A stretch of DNA of 62,830 nt, counting the filler. It is 12 parts of 12 records of this genome, joined end to end, with 100 filler letters (N's around TTAATTAATTAA, not from the genome) between each part and the next. Parts side by side here need not be neighbours in the genome. Positions count along the whole stretch, not along the records: positions 1 to 4,904 come from SRR7504441_17786; positions 5,005 to 14,153 come from SRR7504441_17798; positions 14,254 to 20,207 come from SRR7504441_17817; positions 20,308 to 27,223 come from SRR7504441_17821; positions 27,324 to 32,471 come from SRR7504441_17927; positions 32,572 to 37,250 come from SRR7504441_17931; positions 37,351 to 41,146 come from SRR7504441_17985; positions 41,247 to 45,310 come from SRR7504441_17988; 4 more parts are not named here. One strand, written 5' to 3'. Each line of letters starts with the position of its first letter. The first letter of the stretch is position 1. The notes beneath the pieces were generated by a model. That model was not told the DNA's origin, searched no databases, and saw only the letters and a list, made by a program, of their open reading frames with translations. Positions 735 to 60,703 of this stretch are shown here, one piece after another. Position numbers and translations under genes: made by a program.

Positions 735-2639
735 ATGCTGATCACTGAGCTGTCGGCGGGGCTGCTCGAGCGGGTGCTCGGCTTCCTCGGGCACAGGCAC
801 CTCTCTGCCTGTCAGCTCGTCTTCCGTGAGGCCTCTTCCGACGACGCCCTCTGGCGCCAGCTCTGGGCGATCTGTGGCTGGCGGGACGCGTCCCGCAAGC
901 GGCCACGGCCCGACGGCGCATCGTGCCGGAGCCGGTTCGCGCGGCAACTGGCGCAGGGCCGGCGGGTGTGGGCGCCACTGGCCCCGGGGTGCCTGCCGTA
1001 CGGCCAGCGGTTGGATCTGACCCAGCTGCCGCCCGCAGCTGATGGGCAGGGCGTGACGCTGGCTGGCCATCGGGCCGGCCGGCTGCTGGTGGCCGGCTCG
1101 GAGCGGCCGCTGGAGCGGCTGGTGATTGGCTCCCGAGTGAGTTCTCTCGAGATTGTCGGACTGCCCGGCCGACCGGCGGTTGTGAGCGCCGAAGTGCTCT
1201 TCCACATGCCGCAGCCGAGCGACCCGCAAGGCGCGAGCGAGCGGCCGAGGCTGAGGCTGGTGAATCTGGAGGTGCGAGGGCGGGTGTGGCTCAGCCACGC
1301 GTGGTTGGAGCTGGACGGGTGCATCCTGGGCGGTGGAGTGCATTTAGGCGACGGTTGTGTGCTTGAGGCCTTCGATAGCCAAATCAAATCGACAGAAAGT
1401 CCGACTGGCGGCGACGGCGGTTGGCTGCTGAACACGGGGATGGTGCTGATGGGGATGGCCCGCCCGTCGCGGGCCAGGCTCGAGCGGTGCGCGGTGCTGG
1501 ACTGCGGAGGGCTCGCTGTGGTCCAGTCGGGGCTGAGCACACTGGTGCTGAGCAAGTGCTCCATCGCTAGGAACAGGCTCGGCGGCGTGCTTCTCTCCCC
1601 GCTCCCTAGCAGCGACCCGGGTCGGCTCAGCGCGCTGGTGCTCAACTGCCAGTTCCGGTCCAACCACCGGTGGGGGCTGTGCGCACAAGGTCTCTCTCCG
1701 TAGTCTCTACATAGTCTCTCTAGGGTCGAGCGTCCTGACTCCGTCGGCTGGGCAGATGGTGCCCAGTTTGCCATGGTCGGGACTACCGTGAGCCAAACGA
1801 TCGGGGATGGTCTGGCGCTGCTTCCGCCAAGTACGTGCGCCTTGGGCGGCAGGAGCGAGTGCGGTAGGTGTCGGGTTCGTGCAGCGCTGCAGATTTGAGG
1901 CCAGCGAGCAAAACGGGATCGCGGTTGGAGGCGAGTGCCGCCCCCTCGCATTGCGAGCGCGTGCGGTGCAGCCACGCGGCTCACGTTTCTGGATCGGAAT
2001 GAATGCATCGGCAACCAGGCTGGAGGGATTATCGTTGGGCCGCAGCATCATGTCACGGATGGGCCGTTGGAGGTGCTTGCTGACTCAGGCCTTGAACGAG
2101 TCCGGGCGGCAGAACCCGTCGGTCTGGCTCAGGCACAACCGTTGCGATAAGAACGGGCTCTCTGGAGTGATTTTGCAGGTCTTGCGAGTCTGGTTACCTG
2201 AGCCCGAATGCTGGGCAGGGCAAGGCTGCAGTGCTGGCAGAATCGAACATTGCCTGCGACAATCAGCAGTCGGGCGTGCTTTGCCGCGACGAGGTTTCTG
2301 GCAGACAGGGTTGCAGGGTGTGACTGGCTGGTGATCAGGTGAGGGCGTGGCTTTTTGGCAACGAGGCCATGCGTAATGAGTTTTATGGCATCGCCTGTCA
2401 AGGTGCTACGTAAAGATCTCAGGCTGCTTGAGATGCCGATGAGCAGATCTGCAGGCGATTCTCGGTTTGTCGAGCAAGACAGCTGTATGGAAAAGAATGG
2501 CCGGGGCGAGATCGGCGTATTTGAGCATGCGTCACAAGCTATCCAGCTGAAGCAGCGGGAGCACCTAAACCTAGATGCCCTTGTGAAATTGGAGAATTTA
2601 GCTCACGAAAAGTTTGAGCGTGCTAGCTTCTTCAATTAA
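735..2639 (+). CDS. F-box + right-handed parallel beta-helix (PbH1) protein, FBXO11-like, about 7 introns
   Basis: N-terminal F-box (ITELSAGLLERVLGFLGHRHLSACQLV...SDDALWRQL). Repeated beta-helix units (CSIARNRLGGV, CQFRSNHRWGL, NECIGNQAGGI, NRCDKNGLSGV, NIACDNQQSGV) are restored by removing short GT/GC-AG introns. Confidence 0.75.
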
Positions 2640-2713
2640 AGCAGTCTCATCTGAAAGCAAGGCAATTATCCAAGTAAAACATTTAAATTGAGAGCAGAAG
2701 TAGGCGGCCGATC

Positions 2714-2948
2714 CTATCGCGGCGTTGTGCTGCCCCGTTGGGTGCACCCATCGTACAAGTACGACGGCCTCGAGCTGCTCTTCCCTTTCTGGTTTATTTC
2801 TGGTTCCATCTCTCCGAGGCCGTGGCTACGATGACCTCTGCCTTCTACTGTGCCAAGCCTCTCAGCGTTCCTCCTGCATCCAATCTCGCCTTTGCGGCTG
2901 CTATACACATGTGTAGCTATGCTGTACTAAGCACTAGTACTCTGCCAT
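2714..2948 (-). CDS. Putative small spliced protein
   Basis: ATG at 2948 followed by an exact 40-nt GT..AG intron (2940-2901) joins into the 2714..2908 ORF (MADSRKGEIG...). It is divergent from the 3015 gene across a spacer containing CCGTTACCGTTA. Confidence 0.3.
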
Positions 2949-3014
2949 CCTCTTGAAGAACCGATCGGTGAATCCGTTACCGTTATCCCGACTTCAGGTC
3001 CACTTCGGGCCGCG

Positions 3015-4755: not shown

Positions 4756-4904
4756 GTTAAATTGATAGGTCGTGTGTATGCACACCACCTCGTATTATTA
4801 AGACTGTGCACAATCGTAAAATTCAGTTTAATAATTACAAGTATAATTATACAGTGCCTCATTCATGATTACGGTATAATTATCATTCATAGTGTTGAGC
4901 GCGA

Positions 4905-5004
4905 NNNNNNNNNNNNNNNNNNNNNNNNNNNNNNNNNNNNNNNNNNNNTTAATTAATTAANNNNNNNNNNNNNNNNNNNNNNNNNNNNNNNNNNNNNNNN
5001 NNNN
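4905..5004. other. Artificial contig spacer N44-TTAATTAATTAA-N44
   Basis: 100-bp N-padded six-frame-stop linker, identical at 11 positions in the window. Confidence 0.98.
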
Positions 5005-8000
5005 CTGGAGCAGCTGGAGATCAAACTGGGCGAGGGTTCGGTGCTGCTGCACGACGTCGAACTCAACCCGGCGGCGTTCAACGGTCTGATCGCCCAGGGC
5101 GCGGGCAGCCTGAGCATCGCCTCCGGGGTGGTCAAGGAGCTCTGCATCGCCATCCCGTGGCGCGACCTGATGCACAAGTCCTGCCGGCTCACAGTCCGCG
5201 GAGTCGAGGTGGTGCTCAGCATCGGGACCCCGGCCTGCCCACCGGCCGCCGCGGCCAGCCCGTCGGAGCACCCGTCCCAGCCGGATCTGGAGCACCCCGG
5301 GGAGGACAGTGGGAGCGAAGGGGTGCAGGTGCTAGAGCGGTGGGTCGACAGCGTGCTCTCTCGACTGCAGGTCTCAGTCGAAGACGTGGTGCTGCGGATC
5401 GACCACTGCGCCCAGCAGCTGGGGCACAGGTTCTTCTGCCTGACCTTCACAGTGCAGCGGCTCGAGTATCGTGACACCACGCTTGAAGACCAGCCGCTCG
5501 CTGAGCTCGAGGCCGGAAAGATCCACAGCTCCGGTATAAAGAAAGAAATCAAATTTCAAGGGGTGAGCCTACAGTTGACAGAGGCCGAGGCCGACCCGGG
5601 CGAGGCTGCGCTCCTCAGCAGTGGCGACGCGGATGGGCATGACGACTACCTGTGTGTCACGCTCGTTTCTGCCATGGGAGACGCTAGCCAGCAGGTAGAT
5701 CTGTGCTTCTTCATGCATGCGCTGAACTGCTCGGTTGCGCCCGAGCAAATGCAGGTGCTGGCCGAGATGGCGGCCACCTGGCTGGAGAGTCAGGCCACAG
5801 CGGAGGCTGCTGCGCCGTCGGAGCTGTGCGACAGCCAGAGTGGCCAGAGCGATTCGTTATCGGATTCGCTGAGGCTCGGGGACTTCAGGACGATCGAGCA
5901 GATCCTGGCGGTGCACGAGGGGGTGTCGATGGACCAGCTCACGCTGCCGAGCCCGGAGCTGCCGACTGCGGACGACAACAAGCTCTTCTATTCGACCATC
6001 GGGGGAGACTCAGATGTGTTCAGCAGTTTCATGCAGGGCTCGATGAGCGGAGGCTCCGACTTTGGTAGCGTGATGGGTGGATCCCCGGTCGGCGCCGGGT
6101 CCCCGCTCGGCTCACCAGGGTTGAGCGGTGCGGCGGTGCCTGCAGACGTGCCACCTGACAGTGCGCTCTGCCTGAGTATGCGCGTGCATGTGGAACAAGT
6201 CCGGATTGAGCTGCTGGCGGAGGCGAGGCCCAGCCGGAGTCTGCTGCTAGAGACCAAGCTAGTCGCGAGCACCTGGCTGCAGGCCGGACTGCACTGCGAC
6301 GTCAAGGCCACGCCGATCTCAGCGTATCACTGCACGCCGGAGCTGGATGGTGAGACCAGCCAGGAGATTGTCCTCGGGTTTGGACCGGCCATGAACCTCT
6401 CGCAGGACCTGAGCTGCTCGATGCACATGCACGAGCCGGTGCCCCACCTGCATCTGTCTGGCACTCCGAGCTCTCCTAGCGCGACCCATTTCACTGTTAA
6501 GACGCAACACCTGATGGCATCATTCAATAGCCAGGCTGCAGAGACAATGAACCAGATCGAGCAAGCGATCGGCCAGGCGGTCGATGCGTTCAATGTGGCA
6601 AGCAGCGAGACAGGCGTAGCTGTGGCTGGTGGCGAGCAGCACACCCTGAGCTTGAGCATGCCAAGCCTCGAACTCAATCTGGGGCAACAACTCCGGTTTT
6701 GTGTGTCGGTGGTTTCTGTCGAAGTGGACGCTGATCGCCAGATTGAGGCCAAAATGGGTCGCCTGGAGCTGATGGTGCTGCAGGAGAGCCCGGACGACTG
6801 GGCGCGTGTGCCCTCCTGTGTGGCGAGTGCCAGGTGAGCTGATGGTGTGACAGGTCTGACTGGGGTGGCAGGGGCACAGAGCACCACGAGCTTGTGCTGC
6901 GGGTGCGTTCCACTGCTGATCCTGCCAGCTGGAGCCAGCCCACCCTGAGTCACAAGAGCAGCCACCGGCACGCGCTGCAGGCGGAGGCTGTAGCCGCCTC
7001 GCCAGTGTTTGTGCATCTGTCAGTGCCCGAGTGCGACTTCACCTTGACTAGCTCGAGCTACCAGCTGCTGGTTCACCTGCTGTTCGGAGGCGAGCCCGGG
7101 GATGCCCCGGAGCCCAACCCGGCTGACAGCTTGACAGAGCAGGTGACAGCTGGCTGCTGCTATCTAAGCTGACATTGGTGGGCAGTTGCTCCTCAAGTAC
7201 TCGCTCCTTGTGAGCGTTGCCAAGTCTAACTGGCATGTCTCAGAGGACGCCGCACCAGAGGTGGCGTGCACCCACGTGCTGCCGGATAAGCAGCCGGCGG
7301 TGTATACTGCTCTGCTGGAGGACGCGGCTGTCTTCTTTGCTCAGGCCAAGGCATGCGACTCGAGCTGGCTGTCGGCCAAGCTTGGTTCTATAACGTTGTC
7401 CGAGGCACGCACGGGGCATCCGTGTCGCAAAGTGCTGGCCCAGGCGCCACAGTTTGGGGTGGATCCAGACAGCCAGCCGCCACCGGTGCTCTCAGTGCTC
7501 TGCGCATTTGATGTGGGCGATGGGAGCACTGTTGATGTTTTGGGAAGTGACTTGGTGTATTCATACTATGTAGGCTCAATATGGATCCTGCGTGTGCAGG
7601 ACTTTTTTGTGGCACCATTCAGCCAGCTGCCCCCGGTGGACGAGCTGGCCCCGCCTCAGCTCACCAAGCTCACAGTCGACATGCAGCGGATCTGCCTGCA
7701 CCACGAGCCACTGCTGCACCGAGCGGCTGTGCTGTTCCGACTAGAGAGTGCGCAGCTCTGTGCCAACCTAATCGACCAGTGCCCAGAGGTAGTACTCTGG
7801 CTGGCAGTTCCGTCGGCTCAGGGCTTCCTCACCAAGCAGGCCAGTGCGCTGCGGGAGGTGCTCGAGGCGGTGCACACTCCACACAAGGAGTTCCTGGGGG
7901 ACATCCTTGCGATGAAGCACATAGTGCAAGTGGCCTCGCTCACCGAGATCGAGGCCACCATCACGATCTGCGATGGCCCAGCTGGGGCGGCGCCCATGTT

Positions 8001-10150
8001 GGAGGTGGATGTGCGCAACCCCAAGGCACGCTGGCTGGCCGGCTTGGTTGCTTACCCCGGTCCAGGCGGGTAAACTCACTATTTCCTTCTGCGCCGACTC
8101 GTGCTCAGAGCTGGTGCAGCTCACGGAGGTGGCTGGCTGGCCGGTGCTCCCAGCTGACTGCGGAGGTGCAGCACTGGATCGACGCGGTGGACGTGGGCGG
8201 GTTGATTCTGCCTGCGCCCATGAGCCACGAGGATAACCCGATGGCTGACTCGATGCTGCTCTCCCTGCTGGGCGACGTGGACCCGTTGGCGTTTGCTCCC
8301 TCGAATGCTCCACTAGACGGGGTAGAGGGCCTGCCAGCGGCCGATCCGCAGCAGCTGCCATTTGTGATAGACGACTTCTATCAGATGGGCCATGCAGTGC
8401 GGCGGACGCGCAGTCCGTCGAGTGGCTCGCAGAGTGGATGGCACGAGGAGCCAACGATCGTGGTCGACTATTTCAACACGCGGAATGCTGACAACGAGGC
8501 ACTCAAAGGGCTTGGGGTGCTGGGCGAGCTGAGCGAGCATGAAAATTACCCGCTGGTGCTCACTAAGATGACCTTCACAGGAGTCAACTTGCAGCTCGAG
8601 ATGTTTGGCGGGTTCGACTGGGCAGATCAGTTGCCTCCATCCGCTGTGGATGAGTTCATGCCGCGGCCGGCTGGGCTGGGAGCGGCTGCGGAGGACGAGT
8701 TTGAACCGATGGCTGCCAGCGCGGTGCTGTTCGGACGAGACAAGTCAACGATGCTCCGACTGGAGGTGGCTAGCTAGTGAGGGGCGTGCCAAGACAGGCG
8801 CGGTGCAGGTCGTGGACGCGATGGCGCGGTACTGGGAGTTTGAGCCGCGCCAGGAGCACTCATGGCGGCTGGTGGCGATGGTGCATGACGTCGAGCTTTT
8901 CGACTGCCTGTCCAAGTCGAGCTGGAAGAAGTTCCTCACCCGGTCTCGCCGGTTTGGCGAGCAGCACGGCAGCCGCCCGATGGTCAAGCTGGAGATTGGG
9001 GCGGTCCACCCGGACAAGGACAAGCTTGTCGAGGACTGGTTGCTCAAACTCAGCCTTGTGCCACTCAAGCTCAACATCGACCAGGCACGCGCACACGCCC
9101 TGCCCGCGGCTCAGCTAGCGCAGGACGCTCTAGACTTCCTGGTCGCATTCCTCTCGTTCGATTCGGACCTCGAGCCCGAGGATGAGCTGCAACCGCAGAC
9201 TCCGCCGATATTCTTCCAGTCGTTTGAGCTGTCAGAGCTTCAGGTCACACCGGGCGTCTCAATAGCACTCAGCTGCTTGTCGTAGGTATGCATTGATTAC
9301 AACGCCAAGCACTTTGACGTGGGCAAAGTGCGCGATGGGCACTATGAAGAGTTTGCCAACCTGCTCTCTCTAGAAGGTTCTGGCCAGGCAAAGCTCCGGC
9401 CCTTACCGGTTGCAGGGATGGAGCTTCGCCTAGCCCCAGTGAGCATGAAGGGCGTCTCTGGCTGGGCTAACATCGGCACCGGGGTCCTGTGCCAGTGGGC
9501 GCCCTCGATCTGGGAGTCCCAGATACACCGGTACCAGCCGGGCCCTCAGCAGCTGAGTCCTGGCCAGGTACGCTCAGTCTGTCCAACCGATCCGGTTTGT
9601 GGCCAATTTGGCCAGTGGGATGTTTGACCTTATCTACCTGCCTCTATGTGACGAGCGCTCGGTACTCCGGGGTGTGCTGTGATCATTGGTGCGGAGCTTG
9701 ACCGGTGGAGCAGGTGCGCAGCGAGGGACAGTTTCGTGTGCGTGGAAGGTCTCTCTTGAAGTGATGAGCATGGCAGCCAGGATGGCGGTGACTGCCCAGA
9801 TCGCACTGGAGCACGTGCGCGACAACGTGGTGCCCAACAGCACCCATGATGAGTCCCAGTGTGCCTCGCCTCACTCCAAGTTCAGCAACGCGCCGGGCTC
9901 GATTGGGGCTGGGCTGCACCAGGCGTACAGTTCGCTGTCTGGAGGGCTCAAGCAGGCGGCCAACTCGCTAGTCAAGAGGTCAGGGAAGCCGAGCAAGCGG
10001 ACCACGCAGCAGGGCTACATAGCGTCGCTACTGCAGGGTGTGCTCGGCGTGGGCATCGTAACGGCCGAGGCGGCATCCAAGGTGTTGTTTGGGGTCCGGA
10101 ATAGCCTGGACCCAACGCACAAGATGGAGGCCGCAGATAAGTACAAATAA
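5005..10150 (+). CDS. ATG2: Autophagy-related protein 2 (5' partial), about 10 micro-introns
   Basis: Chorein_N-like start (LEQLEIKLGEGSVLLHDVELN...IPWRDL), CADS motif after splicing, LNIDQ|DALDFL, IDYNAKHFD, and a C-terminal ATG_C region ending GVRNSLDP...DKYK. Confidence 0.9.
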
Positions 10151-10214
10151 AGATCAACCGGTCGGGTGCCGGTCGGGTTCGTAAACAATTACATGAGAAC
10201 TTTATATCCACGGC

Positions 10215-10403
10215 GACGTGGGCAGGGCCGTAATTGCGCTCCGTGGGCATGTAGCTGAAGGCGCAATGTTCGGCTGTACCTGTACACGTACCGCGTACAG
10301 CCGTACACGTACGGGTACAGATGCTGAGTCCTCGCTGTACCTAATCGCGGCAGTCTTTTTCCCCTATAAGGCAGGTCATGAGGTGAGTTTTCTTGCGTCA
10401 TCG
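10215..10403 (+). promoter_or_regulatory. Putative HYOU1 promoter with UPRE-like bZIP sites and a GTAC cluster
   Basis: GACGTGG at 10215-10221, seven GTAC in 10276-10318, and CGTCATCG at 10396-10403 (the same 8-mer lies upstream of PDIA6). Confidence 0.4.
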
Positions 10404-10438
10404 AGCTGTACCGTGCGCTACACTCGCGCCTCGAACCA

Positions 10439-13400
10439 ATGAAGCGCTTCAGCAGCTCGTGCCTGTTGGCCGTGCTCGCCACACTGGCAGCCCCTGGCTC
10501 CGCCCAGATGAGCGCGGTGCTCGGTATTGACCTCGGCACCCAGTTCTTCAAGGCACCTGGGCCAGGGGCGCGGGCCGCCAGCGCCGGGCAGGTGGCTTAC
10601 GTGAAGACCGGCAGTTTCGACCTGGTGCTCAACGAGGCGTCCAAACGCAAAACCTTCACTGCGATCGGCCTGAGCGAGGGCGAGCGGTTCGTCGGCGACA
10701 CCGCCAACACGCTGGTCAGCAGCGGGTGGCGGGCAGGGCGTCTGAGCCCCGGGCGGCAGCGACAGCGATACCCGGACCGGGTGATAGCCAAATTCCAACG
10801 GCTCATCGGCCGGCTGGCGGACGACCCGACGCTGGACGAGGCAGCCCGCCGGTCGGGGGTCGGGCTGATTGCGGGCGGCAGTATGGGTTTGGTTCCTACG
10901 ACTTGCCTTTTAAGATGGAGAAACACCCGGAGCGCGGGACAGTTCTGATCGAGCTCGGCTCCGGCGAGAAGTTCCAGCCGGAGGAGGCGCTCGGGTACCT
11001 GCTCTCCTACATCAGGGACATTGCTCAGACCCACCTGGAGCAGACAGTGAGAAGCTGTCCAACGTTGCTGGGCCAGCGCGCGGCCAGGTGTCAGAATGTG
11101 TGATCACGGTGCCGCCGTTCATGACCGAGCACGAGCGCCGGCTGGTGCACGACGCCGGTGCGGCCGTGGCCAGGCCTGATGGGCTGAGTGTGAGGTGCAG
11201 CCCAGCTGGTTGGTCTCAAGGTGCTCATGTTACTGAACGACAACACCGCGGCCGCTCTCAGGCACGGGATCGAGTCCCCGATGCCGCCCGGGAAGGAGAC
11301 CAATGTGCTGTTCGTCGACGTGGGCGCGAGCCACATGACCAACACAATTGTGACCTATTTCAGCCAGAATGTGTCGACCTATGAGCCGCCGGTGCTTTCC
11401 GGAGGCGGCGGCGGGTTGACGGCGGGCAGGTGCCATCGATGGACATCAAAGCGGTGACGTTTGACGCCACTGTGGGCGGGTCGAGCTTCGACCGTGTGTT
11501 CACCTCGCACCTGGCTCAGCAGTTCAACGAGCAGCACAACAAGAAGATCGAGGAGCACCCGAAGGCGATGATGAAGCTGGCCAAGGAGGCTGAGAAGGTC
11601 AAGAGCGTGCTGTCGGCCAACCAGGAGACGATGGTGATGGTCGAGTCCCTGCTTGACGATGTCGACTTCAAATACAAGGTGTACGAGCGCTCGCTGGCTG
11701 CAGCCGACTAGGCCGGGCAGATTACCCGCAGCCAATTCGAGGAGCTCTGTGCTGAACTGTTCACCAAACTCGAGGCCCCGATCAGCGAAGTGATCCGCAA
11801 GTCCGGACTCAAGCCGAGCGAGATCGAGCAGGTCTGCCACCGATTGCAGCCTAGCCGAGGGAGAGGCAGGTCGTACCATTCGGAGCTGCCACCCGGATGC
11901 CCAGGCTGCAGACCGCTGTGCTCAAGGCCACCGAGCGAGACAGCTGGACCCCGCGGGTGGGCGCGGCCCGAGTGCCCCAGCTAAGCGCTGTGCAGATCAA
12001 CACTGACGAGGCTGCTGCGCTGGGCGCTGCTTTCGTGGCCGCAAACTTCAGCAAGAGCTTCAAGCTCCGTAAGTATTACGTCTACGATCGGTTCCCCTTC
12101 TCAGGTGGCCTGCCGCCCTGCCGCACGCTGAGCGTCTGCCCGCAGTGGGTGTGTCGATCAACGGGAAGGAAGCCACGCTGTTCAAGCCTGACTCGGGCAT
12201 GGAAGCCAAGAAGACGCTCACCCAGCCCATTGACGACAAGATCAAACAAGAGGACAAGCTTGTCCTCTCGCTCCAGTACGACGACAAGTCTGTGCTCCCC
12301 CTCAGTGACCAAGCCTTTGACTACCCAATGGGTCTTGCCGAGTACACCGTGACCGGGATCAACGCAGCGCTCGCCAAGCATGTGAACGTGACTGGCGAAC
12401 CCAAGGTGACGCTCGCGATTGGACTCGGGGCCGACGGGATTGTGGATCTGATCCACGCGGACGCCAAGATCCACTCGATGGATCTGGTCAAGAAGCAGCG
12501 TTTTGTCAAGAAGAACGTGACTGTCGAGCAGTGAGTGCTCTGGCCAGCCCAGTGCTCACTCCAGACTGGCAGGTGGGTGCCACTGAACGAAACTGAGGCC
12601 GACAACAGCACGAACGGCACTGAGACCGCCGAGGCAAAACCTGAAGAGCCTGAGAAGCCTGCAGAGCCCGAGGCTGCCGAGAAGCCGGCTGAGCCGGAGG
12701 CCGCTGCAGCCAATGAGACTGCAGACGGTTCGAACGCGTCGAACGACACCAACACGAGCAAGCCCAAGATCCCTCGGGGTAAGCTTGTGAATGTGACCAA
12801 GGAGAAGACCGTAGAGGTGTGGGAGGAGACTCTACAGAAGGTTCTGCACATGGAGCCTCTCAACGTGACTCGAGCGCACAAGGGAGTCCCGAGCATGAGT
12901 GACGAAGAATTTACAGTGAGTCTGAGCAGTCGAGCCTGCTCTAACCGGTTGGCAGGCGGCATCCAAACGGCACAAGACTCTTGTGGCGGAGGAGAAGGAG
13001 CGGGTGGCTAAGATTAACGCTAAGAACGAGGTGGAGGCGTGGATCTTTGGCTCTAGACAGAAGCTGGGCGAGGATGGGATGGAGACCGTGTCGACTGAGG
13101 AGGAGCGAGAGAAGATCAGCAAGTTGCTAGAGGATGGCGAAGAGTGGCTGTGGGAGGATGGCGAGGACGTGGCCACTGAAGTGTACAAGGCCAAGAAGAA
13201 AGAGATGCTCGATACAGTCAAGAGCGTCTTCATGCGATTCGATGAGCTCGACAGGCGGGCCGAGGCTACCAAGAAGTTCAGCACGGTGGTTGAAGACGCA
13301 CGGTGCCAACACTCCCTCGTGCCCGATGAACTCATGGTCTGGTTGCAGTGAGCGGATCGCCAACTGGACGGCTCGTGAGGAGAAGCGGGTTGCCGCGAAC

Positions 13401-13786
13401 GAGAGCAGCTGGATCCACAAGAACGAGACTGACAGGCTGACCAAGATGGTAGACGACGCTGACGCCTGGCTCAAGGTGGCTGGGCTGGTCGGGATCGGCT
13501 GAGGCGGCGGGCTGTGCAGGAGAAGCAAGAAGAGCTGGAGAAGGCTGGGCTGCTGGTCGACCCGCCGTTCACTGCTAGGGAAGTAGAGCAGCAAATCCGA
13601 CCGGTCCAGAGCGAAGTCGAGTACCTGCGCTACCGGCCCAAGCCCAGATCGAAGCGTAAGCCAGTGCCCAAGAACGCAACTAAAAACGCGACCAGCAACA
13701 GCAGCAATACGACTAGCAATGCGACCGAGCCGGATGCGAGCGAGGCAAATGCGAGCACTCCTGAACCGGCCAAAGATGACCTCTAG
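10439..13786 (+). CDS. HYOU1: Hypoxia up-regulated protein 1 / GRP170 (ER Hsp70-family nucleotide exchange factor), about 14 introns
   Basis: Signal peptide, VLGIDLGTQFFK|VA, LNEASKRKT, CVITVPP, LLNDNTAAAL, DVGAS, AEKVKSVLSANQE, INTDEAAALGA, acidic insertion, and C-terminal KDDL ER-retention signal. Confidence 0.93.
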
Positions 13787-14153
13787 GTCACAAGATGACT
13801 TGTGATTTATGCGCAATCAACCAATCGCTTGACTTCACCCTTAAGCTTGATTGATTGGTTGGGCATCCACAGTGCAATCTGTAGAGACACCGTAGCTCTA
13901 GACACCGTAATGGTTAGACATTTAGTGATTATTTAGGAAGATTACGTACAATATTGAAGATGACTACGTATTTAATGATACTTGTACATGTAAGTCATAA
14001 TTATACTATAGTCTAATTTGATTGTACTTGCTCAATCTTGAGGTGTCGGAGGCGAGCTCGGCGGCGTTTATACATGTACATGATTGTTATGGAGTTTATT
14101 GATTGCTTCAAATGAGTTTTTGGTTTTTCAGCCTAATAAGTAGGTGAATGTGA

Positions 14154-20492: not shown

Positions 20493-22002
20493 ATGGTCGG
20501 GTGCTGCAAAGTGGTGTCGCTGTTCATCGGAGTGCCGCTGGGGGCGCTGGTGCTGCTCATGTCGTTCGAACCGGGCCGCCAGCTCTACCTCGGTGGGCTG
20601 ATGCGCCTCCGCCGCGATTTGCTCCTCCCGACCGTGTCGGCCCGCGGCCCGAACGGCGAGATGCTTGCGGACCCCGGGCTGAGCAAGGCCATCAAGATCA
20701 TGAGCTACCCGTACCTGATCGGAGTGCTGGTCACGGGCGGGAGCGACTTCCGGCGGATCATGTTCTTCCACTGCAGAGACTTGTCCGGTGGGTATGCGGC
20801 CAAGTACGGCCCTTGGATCGACGGGGTGGCCCAATTCTCGCACAAGGCGGTAACGGACGACCAGCTGGACGTGCAGCAGCAGCGCGGGCCGTTCTTCGGT
20901 GGGCTGCTGGTCGGGGGCGCCCAGGCTGACGTGCCGTACGTCTGCATGAGCGGCTGGCAGCTAATGACCTCGACAGACAGCCCGGCGCACAGCAGGGTGC
21001 GGGCGATTCTGAGCCAGGCGGTGGCTGGGCTGGCTGCCAGCCACCATCCGACCGACTTTGATCTGGTGCTGCCGCCAGGGTTGGCTGCAGACAGCGATGC
21101 TGTTGACACTGGCACGTTGTCTAACATAGTCGGGATGAATCTCTGGAGACTCATGTTCGGGTTAAGTCACTGGGACCCTACCCTTGAGGCGCTATTCGCC
21201 GAGTACGGCAGCAAGGGGGCGCTCTGTGCAGTCGGGATCTACAAGGGCGACAAGGATAGGGTCGCCGAAATTGTCCAAGAAGTCGCGATGCGCATCGAGA
21301 AAACCTCAGTCGGTCAAAGGATTATCGAGCTCTCCTCCGCGCCGGGTGAGACGCCGTTGGAGCCAGCCAAGGTGATGAACATGGTGGCGTTTGGCTTCTT
21401 GTTCGCTGGTGTTGGAGGCACCTCGCACCTGGTGACCAACTCTGTGCTGAGGCTCCGGTCGGACCCGGCAACGTACATCCCCATGTGGCTGGCCAGCCCG
21501 CGCAATTTTCTGGTCGAGCAGGTCGCACAGGCGGGCCGGGCTGGCTTAGCCGTGGGACAGGCCCGGCTGGACCCTCCGGTCACATCTTACAACTCGTTGG
21601 TGCCCGCAGACACCACAGTGAAGATGATGGGCAAGGCTGTCAGCATAAAGAAGGGCACCAACCGGCAGGCGGCCGGGCCGAGCCAGGCCGAGGCTGACTG
21701 GGCGACAGATGTTTATTGCGACGGCCAACCGCGACCCCAAGGTGTTTGATGATGCGGATGTCTTTGACCCGTCTAGACCAAACTTAGACAAGGCAACCGC
21801 TTTGCTGATTAATATTAATACTGCTAATGCCAATACGAGCTCATTCGGTGGCCAGGTGCTCAGTTGGAATGGACCGGAGGGCTTGGTGTCGCTAGGGCAG
21901 GCGCCTCGCGGGTGCCCGGGGCACGATGTGGCGCAGTTTGTGGCTCAAAAGGTGGTCGGAAGGTTCCTGCCTGCAGGCCAGGCCGGCAAGACAGAGCTCT
22001 AG
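20493..22002 (+). CDS. Cytochrome P450 with CYP74-clan-like features, 3 introns
   Basis: N-terminal TM anchor, I-helix FLFAGVGGTS, EQ|ARLDPPV (ExxR), ANRDPKVFDDADVFDPSR, heme loop VLSWNGPEGLVSLGQAPRGCPG, and C-terminal KTEL. Confidence 0.85.
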
Positions 22003-45410: not shown

Positions 45411-47811
45411 TGGCGATTCTACTGATGGCGACCCTGGCGGTGATCCTGGTGGCGACTGCTCCTGCCCAGAAAGAAGGAATGTTGGTGCTGCTGCTGGATG
45501 CTCCTGGCCACCCGCCAAGTCCTGAAGACCTCGTCAGTCACCCATCGCATGCGCTGCCAACCTGCAGAAGCTCTTGCCGGAGCACATTGTTGTGCTTTGA
45601 TTTCTTCTCAAGCGCATGCTGTATCTCCTCCATCTTCTGAACCTGCCTCCAAATCACAAGGTACACACCTCACCCACGGCCACCTTATGCGACAGGCTAT
45701 CGTCTCGGCGGCCACGACTGATCAGCAACGGTCGAGGCAACGGCAGTGCCGGGACGCAGAACCCTGTCGCCGTGGCCTGAGCAACCACCAGCTCGTCCCC
45801 AATGTCGATCTGGAGCTTGAGTCCAAACAAGACGTTGCATGCATGCAGCTTGAGCTTGTAGACCAGCTGGCGGTGCAGGTTGTAGGTCATGAACGGAATC
45901 TGATCCGACACAAACATCGCACTCTTCTCGCCCGCAGAGTAAAGCTTACGCCGAGCCACCTGAGAACTCGGTCGATTGGCCAGGGCGGGGGAGGTGCCTG
46001 TGCGTTAATCAGCACGCCAGGACCGACTGAGGTCATTCCCTCCGGGGGCTCGATGGTGGCAAATAGCAGCTCGGGCACGTGCATCTTATGGCACTGCTTG
46101 CACAGCACGCTTCGCATCGGGAAGGTCACCTGCAGCGGCTCACAGCAGCAGGGATGGCAACGGTCACTGTGGTCGGATTGTATGGCACGTGGAAGCAAGA
46201 ACTCTCGCAGCTCGGACCACGCACGCCAGCGAGGCTAAGGCTCGGGATTGGCGACACGCCATCCACCTGAGCCGGCTGGCAAACTGTGGGGTATTCGTCC
46301 TCGTTCCACTCAAGGTTGACAGCGGAGCCCGAGGCGGATATAATGCATAAATCACCGTGAATCGCGCAGCTCTCAGAATAGCCAATTACATGCGAGCAGC
46401 CGAGAGACTTTGCATGCGACTTGATCTGCGGCCGGTGAGTCGCCGGACTAGCAGTGGCCGACGGACCTCGTCTCGCAAGTCGTGCCACCAGCTGTCCCAC
46501 TTCATCCCAGTTCTCTTCCCAATTAACAGCTTGACCGCGTGCGCAGTAACGTAGCCTCCAATCATCAGCTTGTACCGGTTCGAGAAGCCTTTGAGTGTGA
46601 GGATCTGGACGGACTGGGACTGCAGCGCCACCGGCGCAGCTATGTTGTCGTCTTGCTCAGCAAGGTCCGCTGGGCCTGCAGAGCCTCCACGCCTGAGAGC
46701 GACTGCAGAGCCCATTCTCGAGAGCCTAAGCCCGTCCTGTGGCCGACTGCCAGCCCCGGTCAGTCCTTCCGCTTGGCCAAGACGGCACCGGGTGTCTTCT
46801 GGCAGCCGCGGTGACACGAACCGGCCAGGCGACGGCGCCGGGCCTGCCTCTTCCCCTCCAAGCAACAACCCTCCTGGCTCGGGCATCGCAGTCGGCTTGG
46901 GCTTCAGCGGGCCCAGCACTCGGACGGCGGTGCCATACCCGCGGGCAATCACAAATCCGCCCAGCTTGTCCAAGTCGAAGTGCAGCTGATACCCGAGCAC
47001 AGCGTTCCCCTCGAGCTCAACAGTCTTCTTGCCCACAAACCGCCGCACCTTGCCTCCAGAATCAGCCAGACCCCGGGCCGAACCGACCTTGCCCGAGAGC
47101 ACAGTGAACAGCCGGAGCCGTCGCTCGTTCGAGTTTCGCTTGGAGCGGAACGAGTCCTGCCACGCCTCCTCCGGGTCCTCCTCCATGAAGAGCTCCTCGA
47201 CAAACCCTTTGGTCTCAAACTGGGGGAACCCCTCCGGGATGGACGCCCCGGTGAAGAAGAGCACGCCCAGCGACGAGTCACGGAACGCGTTCCGTTCTGG
47301 GATGAAGCGCACTTTAACCTGCCGCCCGGCTCACCCCAGCCCCGCCCGGCCGGCCGCCTTCACGTGCAGATCTCCGCAGCAGCCGCGCAGCGTATCGTAG
47401 ATCGGAAACCAGCCCTCGATCGCGCCCGGGCCCCAGGTGTCCGAGGAGAGGCGGGCGAACTCCTCGTCCACACACAGGCTGGTCAGGTCCAGGTACACCT
47501 GCCGCCGGGGCTCGCACTGCCGGCAGCAGCCCGGCCACCTTGCCGATCACGTCGTCGGCCCCCGCGTGGCTACTATCGAGCACTTCCAGCCGCATCGGCT
47601 CGTCCTGGAAGTACCGGTCCTCCGGCAACTCGAAGGTGATGCTTTCGTTCCAGTAGACCGACCAGCCGGTGTGCGGCGTGGGCTGCTCCGACTCGGGCGA
47701 CGAGGATCCAGTCTGCATAGTGTCCAGGTCGGCGAACTTGATTTGGACCCGGGCGTCCGAGCTCGGCAGGTACCGCGCCCGGTGCACCCGGATCTTGATC
47801 ACGTTCGGCAT
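45411..47811 (-). CDS. C2CD5: C2 domain-containing protein 5 (3' partial)
   Basis: MPNVIKIRVHRARYLP...QDEPMRLEVLD...DVIGK|VYLDL...GWFPIYDTL, GFVEEL...DPE..WQDSFR..R.SNERR, GNAVLGYQLHFDL, ARGYGTA, WWHDLRDE, and NLHRQLVYKLKL...NVLFGL. Confidence 0.9.
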
Positions 47812-47853
47812 ACGCGCGTGTGTGCAGACAGCACGGGCCTCTGTGTGGCGTTG

Positions 47854-49325: not shown

Positions 49326-50871
49326 CTAGATCGCGATCCCGTTGAGCTCGTCCTCGATCAATTGCTTTTGCAGGCTGGTCACTTCCTGGTTGGCTGTGCA
49401 GAGCTTGGCCTTGAGCTGCTCGCGGGCCGCCTCGCACTCCATTAGTTGGCTCTGCAGCTCGCTCACCTGCCCCAGCTCACCGGCCCTGGCTGCCCTGCCA
49501 CCTGCAGCTGCTCGGCTCTTAGGCTGCTCTGCAGTTGCTCGCTCTCCCGGCGCGAGCGGTCGAGCTGCTCGGTCGGGTCTGCTGCCTGGTGAGCTTAGGG
49601 CTGGCCAGCCGGACCTAGATCGAGCAGCTGCTGCTGCAGCCCGGAAAGCTGCTGGTTGGCCTGCTTGAGCCGATCCAGCAGCCCAGCCTCCCGACGCTTG
49701 CTCTCGCCCAGCTGCCCCCGCTCGGGCCGGGCCAGCGGGCCGCACCTCGGATTCCATCTGACTCGCCCTCGCCCGCTCCGCCCCCGCCTGCTTCAGCTCG
49801 GCCTCCGCCTGCCCTCACACTCTGCCCGGCCCACAGCTGGCTCGCCTGGGCCAACTCGGCCGCCACGCCCCGTGCGGCCTGCTGTGACTCGGCCGCGGCC
49901 TCCAGCTTGGCTTCGGCCTGGGTTGGGGATGGCGGGTGGCTCAGGCGGGAGACCCTAACCTCCATCATCTGGAGCTGCATCTGGGAGAGCTCCCCATTGA
50001 GCGCCGCAGTCCGCTCCCGGCCCCTCGCCGCAACGGCCAGCTGCTCCTCCGCCTGCGACCGGTCAGAGGCCGGCTGGACGGCATAGCACCTCCATCAGCC
50101 GCTGCTGCATCTCAGCTTGGCTCTGGAGCCACTCGCTGCACCGGGCTCACCGGCACCCTCAAAGGGGCAAAACCGCTTGCTGTGCTGCTGCTTGGACTGG
50201 GAGCAGGCGCTCGCCTCGAGCTGCTCGCCCGCCTGCAGGAGCTGCTGCTGCAACCCGGCCACTTGACTGTTGGCGGCCCCCAGCTTGCGCTCCAGAGCCA
50301 TCAGCTGCTGCTGCAGCCGGCTCACCTGCCCTGGCTCGCCCCTCTCCAGCCGGGCGGGCGCCTCCTGGTTCCGGTCGGCCAGTTGCCGCTCGAGCTCGGC
50401 TTCCGGCTTGCCCTCCGCCTGCCCCAGCTGCCCCAGCTACGCGGCACGCCGCACCATCAGCCGCGCCTGCAGCCGCGCCACCTCCTGCCTGGCCTGGATC
50501 AGCTCGGTCTTGAACTTGCTCGCCCGCTCCGCCTCGCCCTTGGCCGCCTCCTGCTGGCTCATTTCGGTTTTGAGCTGCCCGCCGCTAGACCGGCCCCAGC
50601 CCGGCACGGCACCGCCTCGACCTCCGCCTGGCCGGCCAGCAGCCCCTCGATCCGGCCAGCCTGCTCTGCCAGCCGCTCTTCGGCCTGCGCACGGCTCGGC
50701 AGTGCGCCAGCGGGTCGGGGGCCTGTGCCAGCTGGGCGGCCAGCTGCTGGTTCTCCTCGGTGGCCTTCTCCAGCCGGGCGCGCACCTCGTCGATCTGCTC
50801 CAGCTTTGGCCTCGCGCAGGACTGGGCCGCACCGGGAAATGCCGATCCCGCGACAGCCGTGCCTTGCCCAT
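49326..50871 (-). CDS. Multi-exon coiled-coil protein
   Basis: MGK|SCARPKLEQIDEVRARLEKATEENQQL... with many Q/E/L/A-rich exons separated by about 40-nt GT/GC-AG introns; ends QKQLIEDELNGIAI. Confidence 0.65.
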
Positions 50872-55578: not shown

Positions 55579-57374
55579 CCCCCCCCCCCCCCCCACTGCC
55601 GGCTGAGCCGTGCGCAGCTGCCCGCTCTGCACTGCTCTGCTCCGGGAGTGGCGGCTTCTGCCTGAGTTACTCCCGGCGGCCCAGCTCACGGTGTCCCGCA
55701 GCCCAGCCCCACTCACCCGGTGCGCAGCTCGCCCAGATCGACTGCACAGACCACGCGGCCTTCTGCGGCGGTGCCCCCCGGGTCCGAGGCTTTCCGCACC
55801 TTCGGCTGTATATGCCGGAGCCGCAGCGGCCGGCCGAGTTCGCCGGGGCCCGGACCACCATCTCGATCGCCCGGTGGGTCCGGGCGCAGCTGCGGCCGCC
55901 GTCGGTCGCCCTGGGCAGCCTGGAGCAGTTGCGGTCGGAGCGCCGGTGGCAGCACCCGCGGCAGCCTGTGGCATACGGATGGCTGGGGGATCGGATCGGA
56001 CTCAACGCCAGCTGGCACACGGTGGCAGCTCAGCTGCGCGGGCACATGCTGTTCGCCCACAGCACGGTGCCGGGCGTGCTAGGGATCGGGCCCCCTGCTC
56101 TAACCCTCCGGACGCCCTGGGAGCCTCCGGAAAGGATCAAGCTGGCCGGGATCAGCCCGGCGCGGCTAAAGCGCTGGCTGCTAGCCCGACTGGTCCCGCG
56201 GTTTGGTCGGCTGACCGAATCGAGCTTTATGCGCTACACTGGTGCGGCGAGCCTAGGCAGTGACTGATGAGTTTGTTGCAGCGACCCAGCGGCCAGTGGC
56301 CGTAATACTCACAGGGCCTCACGACAGCTGCGCCATGCCAAAGAAGGCCACTCAGCGGGTCGCCCGCCGGCTGCGCGGTCGGCTCTCTGTGTGCACTGTT
56401 CCTGTGTCTCGCGCTGGGCTGGACTGGCGCCTCACCCGCGGCCGAGCCACGCCATGGCTCGCGATCAAAATGCCGAATGGCCAGTTCCGTGCGACTTCGG
56501 GTGGGTGCCCCGGGCGGCAGGCGCTGACCGTGCGGCAGCTGACCTGGTGGAGTCGGTCTGCGACCCAGGGCAGCTGATCCGGGCTGCGGCCGAGTTCGAT
56601 CAGTCTGAGCCGTTGACTCCGTTGCCGGCCGAGCCGGGCCAGGCGCTCGCAGTCAGTCCGGCCGAGTTTGAGGCGGGTTGGGGGCTGGTGTGGCTGAGGC
56701 TCGGGGCAGGGCCTGCTCGCCAACCGGACGCACGACCTGCTGCTGCTTATCCACGCGGCGTGGCACCAATCAGGCCCATCGGCGCTCACCGCTCTCCGGA
56801 AGGTACCCGAGGCTGCGGCCCGGGCGAGCCGCGCTGGCAGTTGGCACGCGCGATCGAGTTCTCGCCTGGGGTGGCTGCGGGTGAGATGGATGTAACCAGC
56901 CAGCCCGCACGGACACACTCCAGTCTCGGCACGCTGCCTGCCTGGCGGGCTGCTGACCTGCTGGGCCAGCTGGGTTGTCCGAGGAGGTCCCACAGCTTGT
57001 GATGCTCGCACAGAGCGGCCAAGTGCACCGGTTCACGGGCAAACTGCGCGCAGCCGAGATGCTGAGGTTCGCACGGTGCCGGCGGCGAGGCCCGGGCTGG
57101 CTGAATGGTGGCAGCGAGAAGGCGACGGATGCGCTGGTGATAGATCCGGATGAACTGCAACTGCAGCGCCAGATGAAAGCGGTCCAGGCCAGCCCGGGCC
57201 GGCCCTCATGCTGCACAGGTGCGGCTCGCGACAGAGGCGGCCCGCGCGGCCTTCCGCAGGCAGCGGCACTTAGAGCGGATGGTCCGGCGGCTGGAAGAGA
57301 AGATCGAACGCAAGAGGGTGGCTGCATGTCCCTCGACAAACTCTTCTACATATCAACGCAAGTTGCCCGAATAA
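55579..57374 (+). CDS. Thioredoxin-fold / PDI-like protein (5' partial)
   Basis: LAQIDCTDHAAFC...VRGFPHLRLY...EFAGARTTISIARWVRAQLRP is the second half of a PDI a-domain; later VPQLVML...HRFTGKLRAAEMLRF. Exon structure is only partly resolved. Confidence 0.6.
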
Positions 57375-57482
57375 AGTGTATTGAGCCTCAATTGAGCCTT
57401 TATAACAATACATACTCGTAAGTCATTCGATGTCATCAATTACTCAGTAGGCCCAAGCACGCTTGTTTGAGTAGCGGAACAA

Positions 57483-58876
<1,394 letters not shown>

Positions 58877-58959
58877 GGACGAGTAACGGAATCACAGCTT
58901 TTCGAAGCAATGCGGAGCCAGTCCGGCGGACACAGAGCACGGTGAGCGCTGCGCTCATC

Positions 58960-59210
58960 ATGAGCGGGGAGGAGGCGTCCGAGCTGCGGGCCCAGCTGCG
59001 GATGCTCTCGGCCCGGCTCCAGGCGGCCGAGTCCGGCGAGCGCTGCGCGGTGGCCGAGCTCGGCCTGATCCGGGAGGACGGGCCGCGGCTGCTCGCCTGC
59101 CGGGCCGAGCTGGCCCGGCTGGAGGAGCAGCTGACCGAGGCCCGGGCCGAGCTGCGCGAGGGCCAGAAGGCGGCCGCCCGGGCCGAGCTGCGCGGGCAGC
59201 GGGCGACGGC
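58960..59210 (+). CDS. Coiled-coil protein (3' partial)
   Basis: MSGEEASELRAQLRMLSARLQ... open to the contig end. Confidence 0.5.
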
Positions 59211-59310
59211 NNNNNNNNNNNNNNNNNNNNNNNNNNNNNNNNNNNNNNNNNNNNTTAATTAATTAANNNNNNNNNNNNNNNNNNNNNNNNNNNNNNNNNN
59301 NNNNNNNNNN
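59211..59310. other. Artificial contig spacer
   Basis: N44-TTAATTAATTAA-N44. Confidence 0.98.
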
Positions 59311-59382
59311 CCTGGGGTGCACCGGCAGCCGGCGGATGCAGACACCGAGCATGTGCTCGTCCAGCCGCGCCAGCAGGTCCAT
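59311..59382 (-). CDS. Possible gene start (F-box-like), 3' partial
   Basis: MDLLARLDEHMLGVCIRRLP, divergent from the 59430 gene. Confidence 0.3.
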
Positions 59383-59429
59383 CGCAGTGCAGATCGGGCC
59401 CCGTCAGCCGGCGCGGGAAGAGTTCATCG

Positions 59430-60703
59430 ATGCCGGGCAGCTCTCTGGCCTCGCTGCTGCGGGCAGCTGCAGAGTGGCGGGAGCGCCAGGCGGCCGAGCA
59501 GGAGCACGCTCGCGCCGAGGCCGATGCGCAGGAGGCTGAGCGCTGCCGGGCCGCCCAGGCGGCATCTGCGGCCCGGAAGGCGGCGCAGGACCCTCTCGGG
59601 CGGGCCCCTCGCTCTATGAAGCAATGGGACCAAGTCCTGTGCGATCTGGCAGAGCCCGAGCAGCCGGCCCGGCCCGACCCGCCCCCGGCCGCCCCGGCCG
59701 CCCCGCCGACCCCTCCACGGCGCCGCTGGGACCCTGGAATGATCCACGGCGCCCGCTGGGCCGGCGTGTGCAGACGGTTCAGTTCGGGTGCTAGATCTGA
59801 CCGGCCAGAGCCCACGGCGGCCGCGAAGGCCCCGGCAGCGCCCCGCCCGCCCCAGCCCACCGCCCACGGTGGGGAGGGGAAGCCGGCCGCGGTGGCAGCG
59901 CGCAGCAGCCCGCCCAGCGCGATGGGAATCGGCACCCCACCGGCGGCTCGCGGGTGCAGCTACTGCGGCAAGCGGCCTGAGAAGCTCAGCCGGTGCGCGC
60001 GCTGCCAGCAGGCGTTCTACTGCTCGCGAGAGTGTCAGAAGAGCGACCAGAAGCGCCACCGGCACTGGTGCAAGCAGCAGCAGCTCCGGAGGGAGTTCCG
60101 ATGCCGTCGGTGGGTGGTTCGAGGCGGCTGCTTGGAGGCTCTATGCCGGCCCGAGCCGGGGGCCGGGTCGGTGGAAGTACGTTGCCCCGGGGAGCCTGTC
60201 TGGGGGCGTGAGGCGGCGCCGGGATGGGTGCGGCTGAAGGCGGACGGAGTACTGGATCTCGAGGCGGAGGAAAGCGATAGATGGCTTCCGATAGAAGTGG
60301 AAGGCAGGGTAGTGCTGGAGGAGGCTGCGCTGCATCCGAGCCTGGAGCGGAACTCGGCGGTGAAGGAAGGGTGGGAGGTGGGCTGCCTGCGGCTGCGCGG
60401 GCGATGAGTGTGCGACAGATGTTGAGAGAAGACTTTGGAGCTCGAGACGACTGGGAGCATGCGTGCAGCTACGCCGCGACTGTGATGGCCGAGTGCGAGG
60501 AGAATGCGGCCACCGCCGCCTGGATGATCGAAGACAAGCTGCCGCACAATGGGCCTAAGTCGTACACGGATCGGCCGTACGCCAAGGAGCGGATGGAAAA
60601 GATTGAGCAAATGATGGGGTTCAGAGAGTTATGCCAGGAGGGCAGGCCGGCCGCGGCCGAGCTGATGTTCCGCCGGTGGGCGGCTAGCGTGGCCGGGTCC
60701 TGA
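59430..60703 (+). CDS. MYND zinc-finger protein with SH3b-like region, 1 intron near 60377
   Basis: CSYC...LSRCARCQQAFYCSRECQKSDQKRHRHWC; a GT..CAG intron joins to MLREDFG... ending at 60703. Confidence 0.75.

Follow-up and report, generated by a model that had tools for sequence, protein, structure and literature searches.

We analyzed a stretch of marine metagenomic DNA of 62,830 bases (here called the window) and found that its genes are interrupted by introns of about 40 nucleotides (nt), roughly one in six of which begins with GC instead of GT. A preliminary description of the window had proposed such tiny introns with frequent GC donors, and they proved to be real: 15 splice joints are listed from assembled RNA, and 23 further introns are delimited by homologous proteins or a protein profile. 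The source is a marine protist, probably a telonemid, with a compact, GC-rich genome, and its tiny introns are most probably ordinary ones of the major (U2-type) spliceosome, with recognition across the intron.

The window consists of 12 contigs (3.1-9.1 kb) of one metagenomic bin, joined by spacers of the form N44, TTAATTAATTAA, N44. Spacers lie at positions 4905-5004 and at ten other places; no feature can cross them, and contigs that stand side by side are not necessarily neighbors in the genome. The pattern had been called genome-wide. It does extend across the gene-bearing contigs, but the sample comprises only these 12 short contigs (62.8 kb in all), and "genome-wide" is to be read in that sense. 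Per-contig G+C content ranges from 49 to 68% and lies between 58 and 68% in 11 of the 12. The runs that contain sequence words from the stretch that was searched are all metagenomes or metatranscriptomes of marine or aquatic origin.

The first line of evidence is RNA. We compared assembled RNA contigs from four marine metatranscriptome runs with a single contig of the window (positions 5005-14153). On it lie ATG2 and a HYOU1/Grp170-like gene, both with introns on the plus strand. Three of the runs (X2, X3, and X8) come from one study, while the fourth (X7) is a polyA library from another. Nearly all of the RNA contigs that aligned (24 of 25) share at least 99% identity with the window. Their joints skip segments of 37 to 46 nt in both genes, and these segments, present in the window's own DNA contigs, are missing from the RNA contigs. 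Of 17 joints, 15 are detailed here. When all placements permitted by ambiguous bases were enumerated, GY..AG borders fitted every one of the 15. Two can be placed only as GC..AG, at the very coordinates given in the preliminary description: a 39-nt intron of ATG2 at 9085-9123 (cag/GC..AG, where the slash marks the border between exon and intron), over which ATG2 profile positions 1393 and 1394 also meet, and a 41-nt intron of the HYOU1-like gene at 10841-10881 (gag/GC..AG), which is skipped in RNA contigs of two runs.

The other 13 joints can be placed as GT..AG. In ATG2, they correspond to introns at 9244-9285 (42 nt), 9531-9567 (37 nt), and 9672-9713 (42 nt). In the HYOU1-like gene, they lie at 11047-11087 (41 nt), 11158-11200 (43 nt), 11679-11720 (42 nt; polyA run X7 included), 11832-11869 (38 nt), 11957-11995 (39 nt), 12105-12145 (41 nt), 12531-12572 (42 nt; three runs, including X7), 12916-12955 (40 nt; three runs), 13303-13348 (46 nt; all four runs), and 13476-13519 (44 nt; three runs). 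The joint at 11832-11869, which has seven ambiguous bases repeated at both borders, fits GC..AG at 11828-11865 equally well, and the mRNA is identical either way. Once spliced, the open reading frame (ORF) of the HYOU1-like gene ends in KDDL, and a polyA tail follows the gene at 13975. No joint is listed at 8026-8065 or 10553-10591, two positions where RNA cover is absent or thin and uninformative in either direction. Two side observations concern the HYOU1-like part of this contig. Some RNA contigs diverge from the window near 13409-13448 and 12287, with 110 and 55 loose letters (X3) and 19 (X8); they may be chimeras, variants, or alternative forms. In addition, an in-frame, stop-free GT..AG segment of 45 nt at 10715-10759 is suspected, from its sequence, to be an intron.

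The second line of evidence is homology. Single exons served as queries, spliced gene models were aligned to the resulting hits, and an alignment without gaps across a junction was taken as support. In this way, 22 introns were supported in four genes: PDIA6, a C2CD5-like gene, TRMT61, and a cytochrome P450-like gene. PDIA6 (plus strand) contains seven introns, two of which have GC donors: 30584-30623 (40 nt; aag/GC..AG; junction GFPTIK/IFG) and 30708-30748 (41 nt; gag/GC..AG). All six junctions that had been predicted are gap-free against seven homologs, the nearest of which is 73% identical; the other four belong to GT-AG introns at 30327-30368 (42 nt), 30475-30517 (43 nt), 30857-30895 (39 nt), and 31223-31265 (43 nt). 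The seventh intron, a GT-AG intron of 36 nt near the C terminus (31650-31685), is in frame and stop-free, and was revealed by a 12-residue insertion that is absent from the six homologs reaching that far.

The C2CD5-like gene (minus strand) has four introns, whose junctions are gap-free against transcripts of Telonema subtile. The GC-AG intron at 47319-47357 (39 nt; aag/GC..AG) and the GT-AG introns at 47499-47538 (40 nt) and 47049-47087 (39 nt; 3' end AAG) are supported by both transcripts (P0121 and P0122), and the GT-AG intron at 46426-46466 (41 nt) by P0122. TRMT61, also on the minus strand, has eight introns and is colinear with its nearest homolog (P0137). One of the eight, at 57754-57791 (38 nt; acg/GC), has the only validated GC donor that is not preceded by AG; its junction, NFH-D-IRTYE, is gap-free against P0137 and others. 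The remaining TRMT61 introns are GT-AG: 58506-58543 (38 nt; gap-free against P0137 and others), 58291-58330 (40 nt), 58197-58236 (40 nt), 58111-58147 (37 nt), 58012-58046 (35 nt), and 57873-57911 (39 nt), all with gap-free junctions, and 57570-57616 (47 nt), which is colinear with P0137. The gene finder described below joined to TRMT61 a 5' exon at 58896-59208 (minus strand) with a Pro/Leu/Gly-rich translation and no counterpart in any homolog. The intron that it placed between this exon and the next (58858-58895) is contradicted by homology, and the true start of TRMT61 is probably within or near 58544-58857.

In the P450-like gene (20493-22002, plus strand), three introns are supported, two of them with GC donors. 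The intron at 21669-21708 (40 nt; cag/GC..AG) is gap-free against five homologs and was called in all four settings of the gene finder. The other two were found as insertions absent from the homologs that cover them, and both are in frame and stop-free. At 21793-21855, a GC-AG intron of 63 nt (aag/GC..AG) corresponds to a 21-residue insertion that four covering homologs lack; among placements within 3 bases, GC..AG is the only one that yields GY..AG ends. At 21522-21560, a GT-AG intron of 39 nt with a high intron score corresponds to a 13-residue insertion that all five homologs lack, and its removal restores the motif E-x-x-R..PPV. As a protein, the gene is very divergent. Its last exon alone matches the P450 profile (positions 367-418, E = 0.005) and also matches P450s in the PDB (E = 6e-4), a PDB search with exon 1 returned only a chance-level hit, and its nearest relatives are proteins of 447 to 524 residues from metagenomes and transcript-length contigs. 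One candidate in this gene was rejected. A GC..AG segment of 36 nt at 21901-21936, with an intron score in the top class, encodes the P450 haem-binding PRGCPG region, which the homologs conserve, and its removal would delete the haem cysteine. It is a false positive despite its high score; signal scores alone therefore over-call GC introns.

One further GC-AG intron, at 10553-10591 in the HYOU1-like gene (39 nt; plus strand; aag/GC..AG), is supported by the coordinates of a hidden Markov model (HMM) and is a weaker case: exon 1 ends in GIDLGTQFFK, which contains the GIDLGT motif, and residues 2-39 of exon 2 correspond to positions 14-51 of the HSP70 profile. Six of the seven GC introns named in the preliminary description are thereby supported. 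The seventh, a 40-nt candidate in ATG2 at 8026-8065 (plus strand), was called in all four settings of the gene finder and stands on frame logic. In-frame GT alternatives of 49 to 64 nt are present there, and a Pfam search with the flanking ATG2 exons gave no ATG2 match.

Two genes point to the identity of the source organism. A C2CD5 exon had, as its sole match in a collection of 5.8 billion proteins, a transcript of Telonema subtile (81% identity). Over its full length, PDIA6 is 63% identical to Telonema, 65 to 73% identical to four other sequences, and at most 49% identical to the remaining hits that were compared. In a maximum-likelihood tree of PDIA6 (42 rows, mostly animals), the window sequence falls inside a clade with 100/100 support, together with Telonema subtile and these four sequences. 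Telonema subtile is the nearest named relative in both comparisons. From two genes and a tree made up mostly of animals, we consider the organism likely to be a telonemid or close kin. Other searches added little. Rfam (gathering thresholds) and ARAGORN returned no small nuclear RNA (snRNA), no rRNA, and no other match in the window, and an ESM Atlas search with a decarboxylase gave no clue to lineage. Metagenome contigs scanned with the PDIA6 alignment, by means of the pattern PWCGHCK, which was too general, yielded no orthologous introns of relatives; the 80 loci kept had at most 59% identity and, two short fragments aside, at most 56% identity to the spliced model. One contig of the window stands apart. 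At 48.5% G+C, the contig at 41247-45310 received no gene model from a codon table trained on the other contigs, and it contains an Ion_trans (ion-transport) ORF on the minus strand (42641-43780). It may be foreign to the bin or an odd region of the genome.

To estimate the share of GC donors across the window, we used a dynamic-programming gene finder that combines codon log-odds, intron length, and splice-site profiles and that was seeded with the RNA-supported introns. When the GC prior was left free during self-training, more than 300 introns were called and GC donors rose to 41-55%, a result discarded as runaway overprediction. In its place, we used fixed GC priors, a consensus of four settings, and a control with decoy dinucleotides. 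With fixed priors, the number of introns varied with the penalty from 81 to 180 across rounds, with 11 to 18 GC donors in the final round even at a prior of 0.01. The four settings agree on 75 introns (the robust parse), 64 with GT donors and 11 with GC donors (15%). The evidence-supported set holds 38 introns, 29 GT and 9 GC (24%); without the HMM-only case, the share is 8 of 37, or 22% (95% interval, 10-38%). In the union of the two sets, with the refuted intron removed, 14 of 81 introns have GC donors (17%). The robust parse and the union are the less biased figures, and they bear out the 17 GC donors among about 90 introns of the preliminary description as a fair estimate. A GC-donor rate near 1% is excluded: under a rate of 1.3%, the probability of the 6 GC donors found among the first 32 introns is P = 3e-6.

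Among the 11 GC introns of the robust parse, six are validated, and no call is contradicted by the evidence. Besides 8026-8065, the calls standing as candidates, each made in all four settings, are 45960-45997 in the C2CD5-like gene (38 nt; minus strand), whose flanking exons align with positions 3-31 and 44-101 of the YbjQ_2 profile in roughly colinear order; 49809-49845 (37 nt) and 50685-50722 (38 nt) in a coiled-coil gene on the minus strand; and 56673-56709 (37 nt; plus strand) in an unassigned gene. The last three stand on frame logic. The gene finder missed 3 of the 9 validated GC introns versus 4 of the 29 validated GT introns. It is blind to introns that are in frame and stop-free; the three of this kind emerged as insertions in homolog alignments, and 21522-21560 emerged in an in-frame scan as well.

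The introns have a consistent anatomy. Lengths fall between 35 and 47 nt in 37 of the 38 evidence-supported introns, and the remaining one measures 63 nt. The median is 40 nt, and the standard deviation is 3.4 nt over 77 introns. In HYOU1, PDIA6, and TRMT61, there is about one intron per 200 to 300 nt of coding sequence. At the donor, the last exonic base (-1) is G in 34 of 38 cases (25 of 29 GT donors and 9 of 9 GC donors), and -2 is A before 14 of 29 GT and 8 of 9 GC donors. Exonic AG thus precedes 8 of 9 GC donors versus 14 of 29 GT donors (Fisher p = 0.052), and the exception, 57754-57791, is proven by homology. Position +3 of GT introns is G in 17, C in 10, and A in 2 (purine in 19 of 29), while in GC introns it is a purine in 9 of 9. 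Among the 29 GT introns, 17 have G at +5; positions +4 and +6 show no preference. The GT donor consensus is an exonic G followed by GT[G/C]N[G/C].

At the other end, all 38 introns terminate in AG, with C at -3 in 35 and G at -4 in 26. The most frequent endings among 81 introns are GGCAG (34), TGCAG (11), CGCAG (7), and GACAG (6). The exon that follows begins with G in 25 of 38 cases and has T as its second base in 22 of 38, and many junctions read CAG/GT. This preference implies that the 3' splice-site signal reaches into the exon. A candidate branch motif, YTVAN (mostly CTGAN or CTCAN) with its A 11 to 18 nt upstream of the AG, is present in 24 of 38 introns. CTVAN occurs in 40 of 77 introns versus 14% of shuffled sequences, and in 35 of those 40 the A lies 11 to 16 nt from the 3' end. 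The preliminary description fares well here. Its lengths of mostly 35 to 46 nt, its GC donors following exonic AG, and its GGCAG, TGCAG, and GACAG ends all agree with these counts, as does its loose CTGAN/CTAAN/CTCAN site as a motif; that the motif serves as a branch site is putative.

Base composition is also unusual. The introns are richer in G+C than the exons (70.5% in 81 introns versus 62% in the coding sequence of six genes), with 42% G and a G skew of 0.185 versus 0.067 in exons, which is the opposite of the usual AT-rich intron. A role for G triplets as a splicing enhancer was considered and rejected: the density of GGG in introns is 2.2 times that in exons, yet it stays within what composition predicts, with 56 of 81 introns containing the triplet versus 65 expected from shuffles. 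Much of the information needed to find these introns is local. A leave-one-gene-out model that knew only length and the two splice-site regions ranked 28 of the 38 true introns as top nonoverlapping picks among 301 to 2,248 candidates per gene. Local signals and length thus hold most of the information, inside a unit of about 40 nt, as would suit an ordinary major spliceosome that recognizes its substrates across the intron.

We propose that introns in this lineage have been reduced to about 40 nt, close to the minimum, while remaining dense in genes. Their few signals lie close together: an exonic (A)G and GT or GC, a weak preference for G or C at +3 and +5, the branch-like YTVAN motif 11 to 18 nt before the 3' end, a GCAG acceptor followed by G, and a narrow window of lengths. 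Under intron definition, the spliceosome would pair the two splice sites of each intron with one another. GC-biased mutation or gene conversion may keep changing the T at +2 to C, and such donors, which lose the contact at +2, would be tolerated where exonic -2A and -1G together with a purine at +3 keep enough pairing with U1 and U5. Roughly 10 to 20% GC-AG introns would result with no change in the splicing machinery. The suggestion in the preliminary description that introns are defined by length and exonic AG is supported by the tight lengths, the weak intronic donor signal, and the reliance of GC donors on exonic AG; the part of it that invoked a modified U1 goes beyond the evidence.

Abundant GC-AG introns have precedents. 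They are reported at 39.6% in Aureococcus anophagefferens and 22.2% in Micromonas pusilla CCMP1545, versus 1.3% of 2.46 million introns overall (Iwata & Gotoh 2011, PMC3033335). The putative U1 5' end of both species is given there as the canonical AUACUUACCUG, and the authors suggest base modification or U1 proteins and call the origin "an enigma" (PMC3033335). In pelagophytes, 14 to 17% of introns are reported as GC-AG, with average intron lengths of about 100 to 180 nt (bioRxiv 10.1101/2024.10.30.620910). All of these resemble the window in being marine pico- or nanoplankton with a GC-rich nuclear genome, in a GC-AG share that is an order of magnitude above about 1%, and in the AG acceptor. 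The window itself combines high G+C (11 of 12 contigs at 58-68%) with GC-AG shares of at least about 10% (11/75, 14/81, and 9/38), as in GC-rich protists. It differs from pelagophytes in its much shorter introns and in its telonemid-like lineage. For the haptophyte Emiliania huxleyi, GC-AG borders are reported in 56% of 241 manually mapped junctions (Feldmesser et al. 2014, PMC4028052). There, too, the GC donor is a regular alternative in a GC-rich genome with an AG acceptor, although its share is well above the 17% or so found here. A 2026 preprint places Telonemia as sister to Haptophyta (10.64898/2026.04.08.717153), and given that placement, a GC-tolerant habit common to the two groups is thinkable.

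For intron size, the closest comparison is Paramecium tetraurelia, whose introns are reported to average 25 nt (PMC8997360). Like the window, it has narrow, near-minimal lengths, many introns per gene, and recognition across the intron. The window differs in introns that are 70% G+C, above the exons, and in its GC donors. The Paramecium genome is AT-rich. GC-AG introns of animals and plants reportedly follow a rule of compensation by a strong donor consensus, attributed to Burset and to Thanaraj and Clark. Such compensation is seen in the window, with AG upstream of 8 of 9 GC donors and a purine at +3 in all 9, but it does not extend to +4 to +6, and the frequency is 10 to 20 times higher than the level of about 1% in those groups. 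Abundant GC-AG introns are thus already published for Aureococcus, Micromonas pusilla, and Emiliania, and the window adds a case with unusually small, GC-rich introns. Full-text literature searches turned up, among the matches listed and judged by title and abstract, no description of telonemid nuclear introns or gene structure that would make the pattern already documented for the lineage. A large study of ocean metagenome-assembled genomes states that its collection does not represent Telonemia (PMC9903769).

Several points weigh against reading these as ordinary introns handled by unchanged machinery. The sample is small (62.8 kb in 12 contigs), and the contig at 41247-45310 may belong to another organism. 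Assembled RNA contigs establish that the spliced form exists, which is distinct from the level of retention or the completeness of splicing. The verified genes (PDIA6, C2CD5, TRMT61, and the P450-like gene) were partly chosen for predicted or claimed GC introns, which biases the figure of 9 of 38 upward. The gene finder is noisy, since decoy dinucleotides drew 5 to 19 "introns" at a prior of 0.15 and 0 to 9 at a prior of 0.01. GC donors follow AG more often than GT donors do, but in the evidence set this difference is of borderline significance (p = 0.052); in a larger set it is clearer (11 of 12 GC versus 34 of 65 GT, p = 0.012) but partly shaped by the donor profile of the gene finder. That the machinery is unchanged is argued by analogy with other lineages. 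Finally, the degenerate donor and missing polypyrimidine tract noted in the preliminary description are both borne out. Positions +3 to +6 match AAGT at an average of 1.07 (GT) and 1.11 (GC) of 4 positions, which is about chance, and positions -20 to -4 are G rich and lack a tract (G 44%, C 29%, T 15%, and A 12%; pyrimidine 44%). Together, these two features strain a textbook reading by U1 and U2AF. Lineages with short introns often lack a polypyrimidine tract, and its absence does not exclude membership in the U2-type family.

The same two features would also fit a different account, in which the machinery itself has changed. An altered U1 5' end, altered U1C, or altered U5/Prp8 contacts would make C at +2 as acceptable as U, and reading would shift to exon positions -2 and -1 and to intron length. 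The near-random +3 to +6 positions relative to the canonical donor, the C at +3 in 10 of 29 GT introns, and the roughly 17% GC donors would all be expected. We regard such a change as unlikely. Aureococcus and M. pusilla, with higher GC-AG shares, are reported to keep a canonical putative U1 5' end (PMC3033335). The 5' end of canonical U1 snRNA is ACUUACCUG, which could pair with -1G, +1G, +2U, G at +3 (as a wobble), and +5G. The GT consensus here, GTGNG, keeps these pairing positions under that scheme. A modified U1 is not needed to account for the data. A more specific version is also unlikely: 5' splice-site reading would have moved off the intron, and the donor would be set mainly by exon positions -2 and -1, G at +1, and a measured distance of about 40 nt to a CTNAN..GCAG module at the 3' side. 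Changes in the U1 5' end, in U1C, or in a contact of U5/Prp8 would make C at +2 neutral, and this state would have been inherited in common with haptophytes.

If the segments were not classical spliceosomal introns at all, they might be U12-type introns, introner-like mobile elements, nonconventional introns of the euglenid type, or elements excised from DNA. Their G content of 42%, their lack of a polypyrimidine tract, and their very uniform length could be read in this way, yet we find it highly improbable. All 38 start with GT or GC and end with AG, the branch-like motif is fixed in position, and the segments are present in DNA contigs and missing from RNA contigs. Signals of U12-type introns ([AG]TATCC at the donor and CCTTAAC at the branch) were found in 0 of 81 introns in either case. 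Introner-like repetition is nearly absent, with an exact 14-mer common to 2 of 3,240 intron pairs and a 12-mer common to 5. Nor do the introns fold more than expected, with a mean z of -0.19 against shuffles and 2 of 38 below -2.

The remaining account, that the GC-AG calls are misplaced GT-AG borders or false calls in GC-rich DNA and that the true rate is 1 to 2%, draws on the yield of the decoys, the false segment at 21901-21936, the in-frame GT alternatives for unverified candidates, and the one RNA joint that is ambiguous between GT and GC, but it is contradicted by the present data and carries very little probability: two RNA joints allow GC..AG only, six more GC junctions are exact in gap-free protein alignments, the P value of 3e-6 for 6 of 32 stands, and when GC was swapped for each of 10 decoy dinucleotides, GC scored highest in all four settings (25 versus 19 for the best decoy, 12 versus 9, 17 versus 14, and 11 versus 6).

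The pattern has practical consequences for genomics. Gene callers that expect GT-AG borders, a pyrimidine tract, or introns longer than 50 nt will fail here. The introns at 21522-21560, 21793-21855, and 31650-31685, being in frame and stop-free, will be read through by ORF-based callers, which adds 12 to 21 spurious residues to proteins used in phylogenomics. The donor signal is cut almost to (A)G plus GY, and the organism thus offers a clean natural test of the minimum of 5' splice-site information on which a spliceosome can work. With this finding, the GC-rich protists known for abundant GC-AG introns gain a further lineage, independent and heterotrophic. If the lineage assignment holds, the window offers a first view of gene structure in Telonemia, a deep, orphan lineage: intron rich, with introns of about 40 nt and about one-sixth GC donors. 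And if GC-tolerant machinery were truly common to telonemids and haptophytes, it would provide a molecular character for the proposed grouping of Telonemia with Haptophyta.

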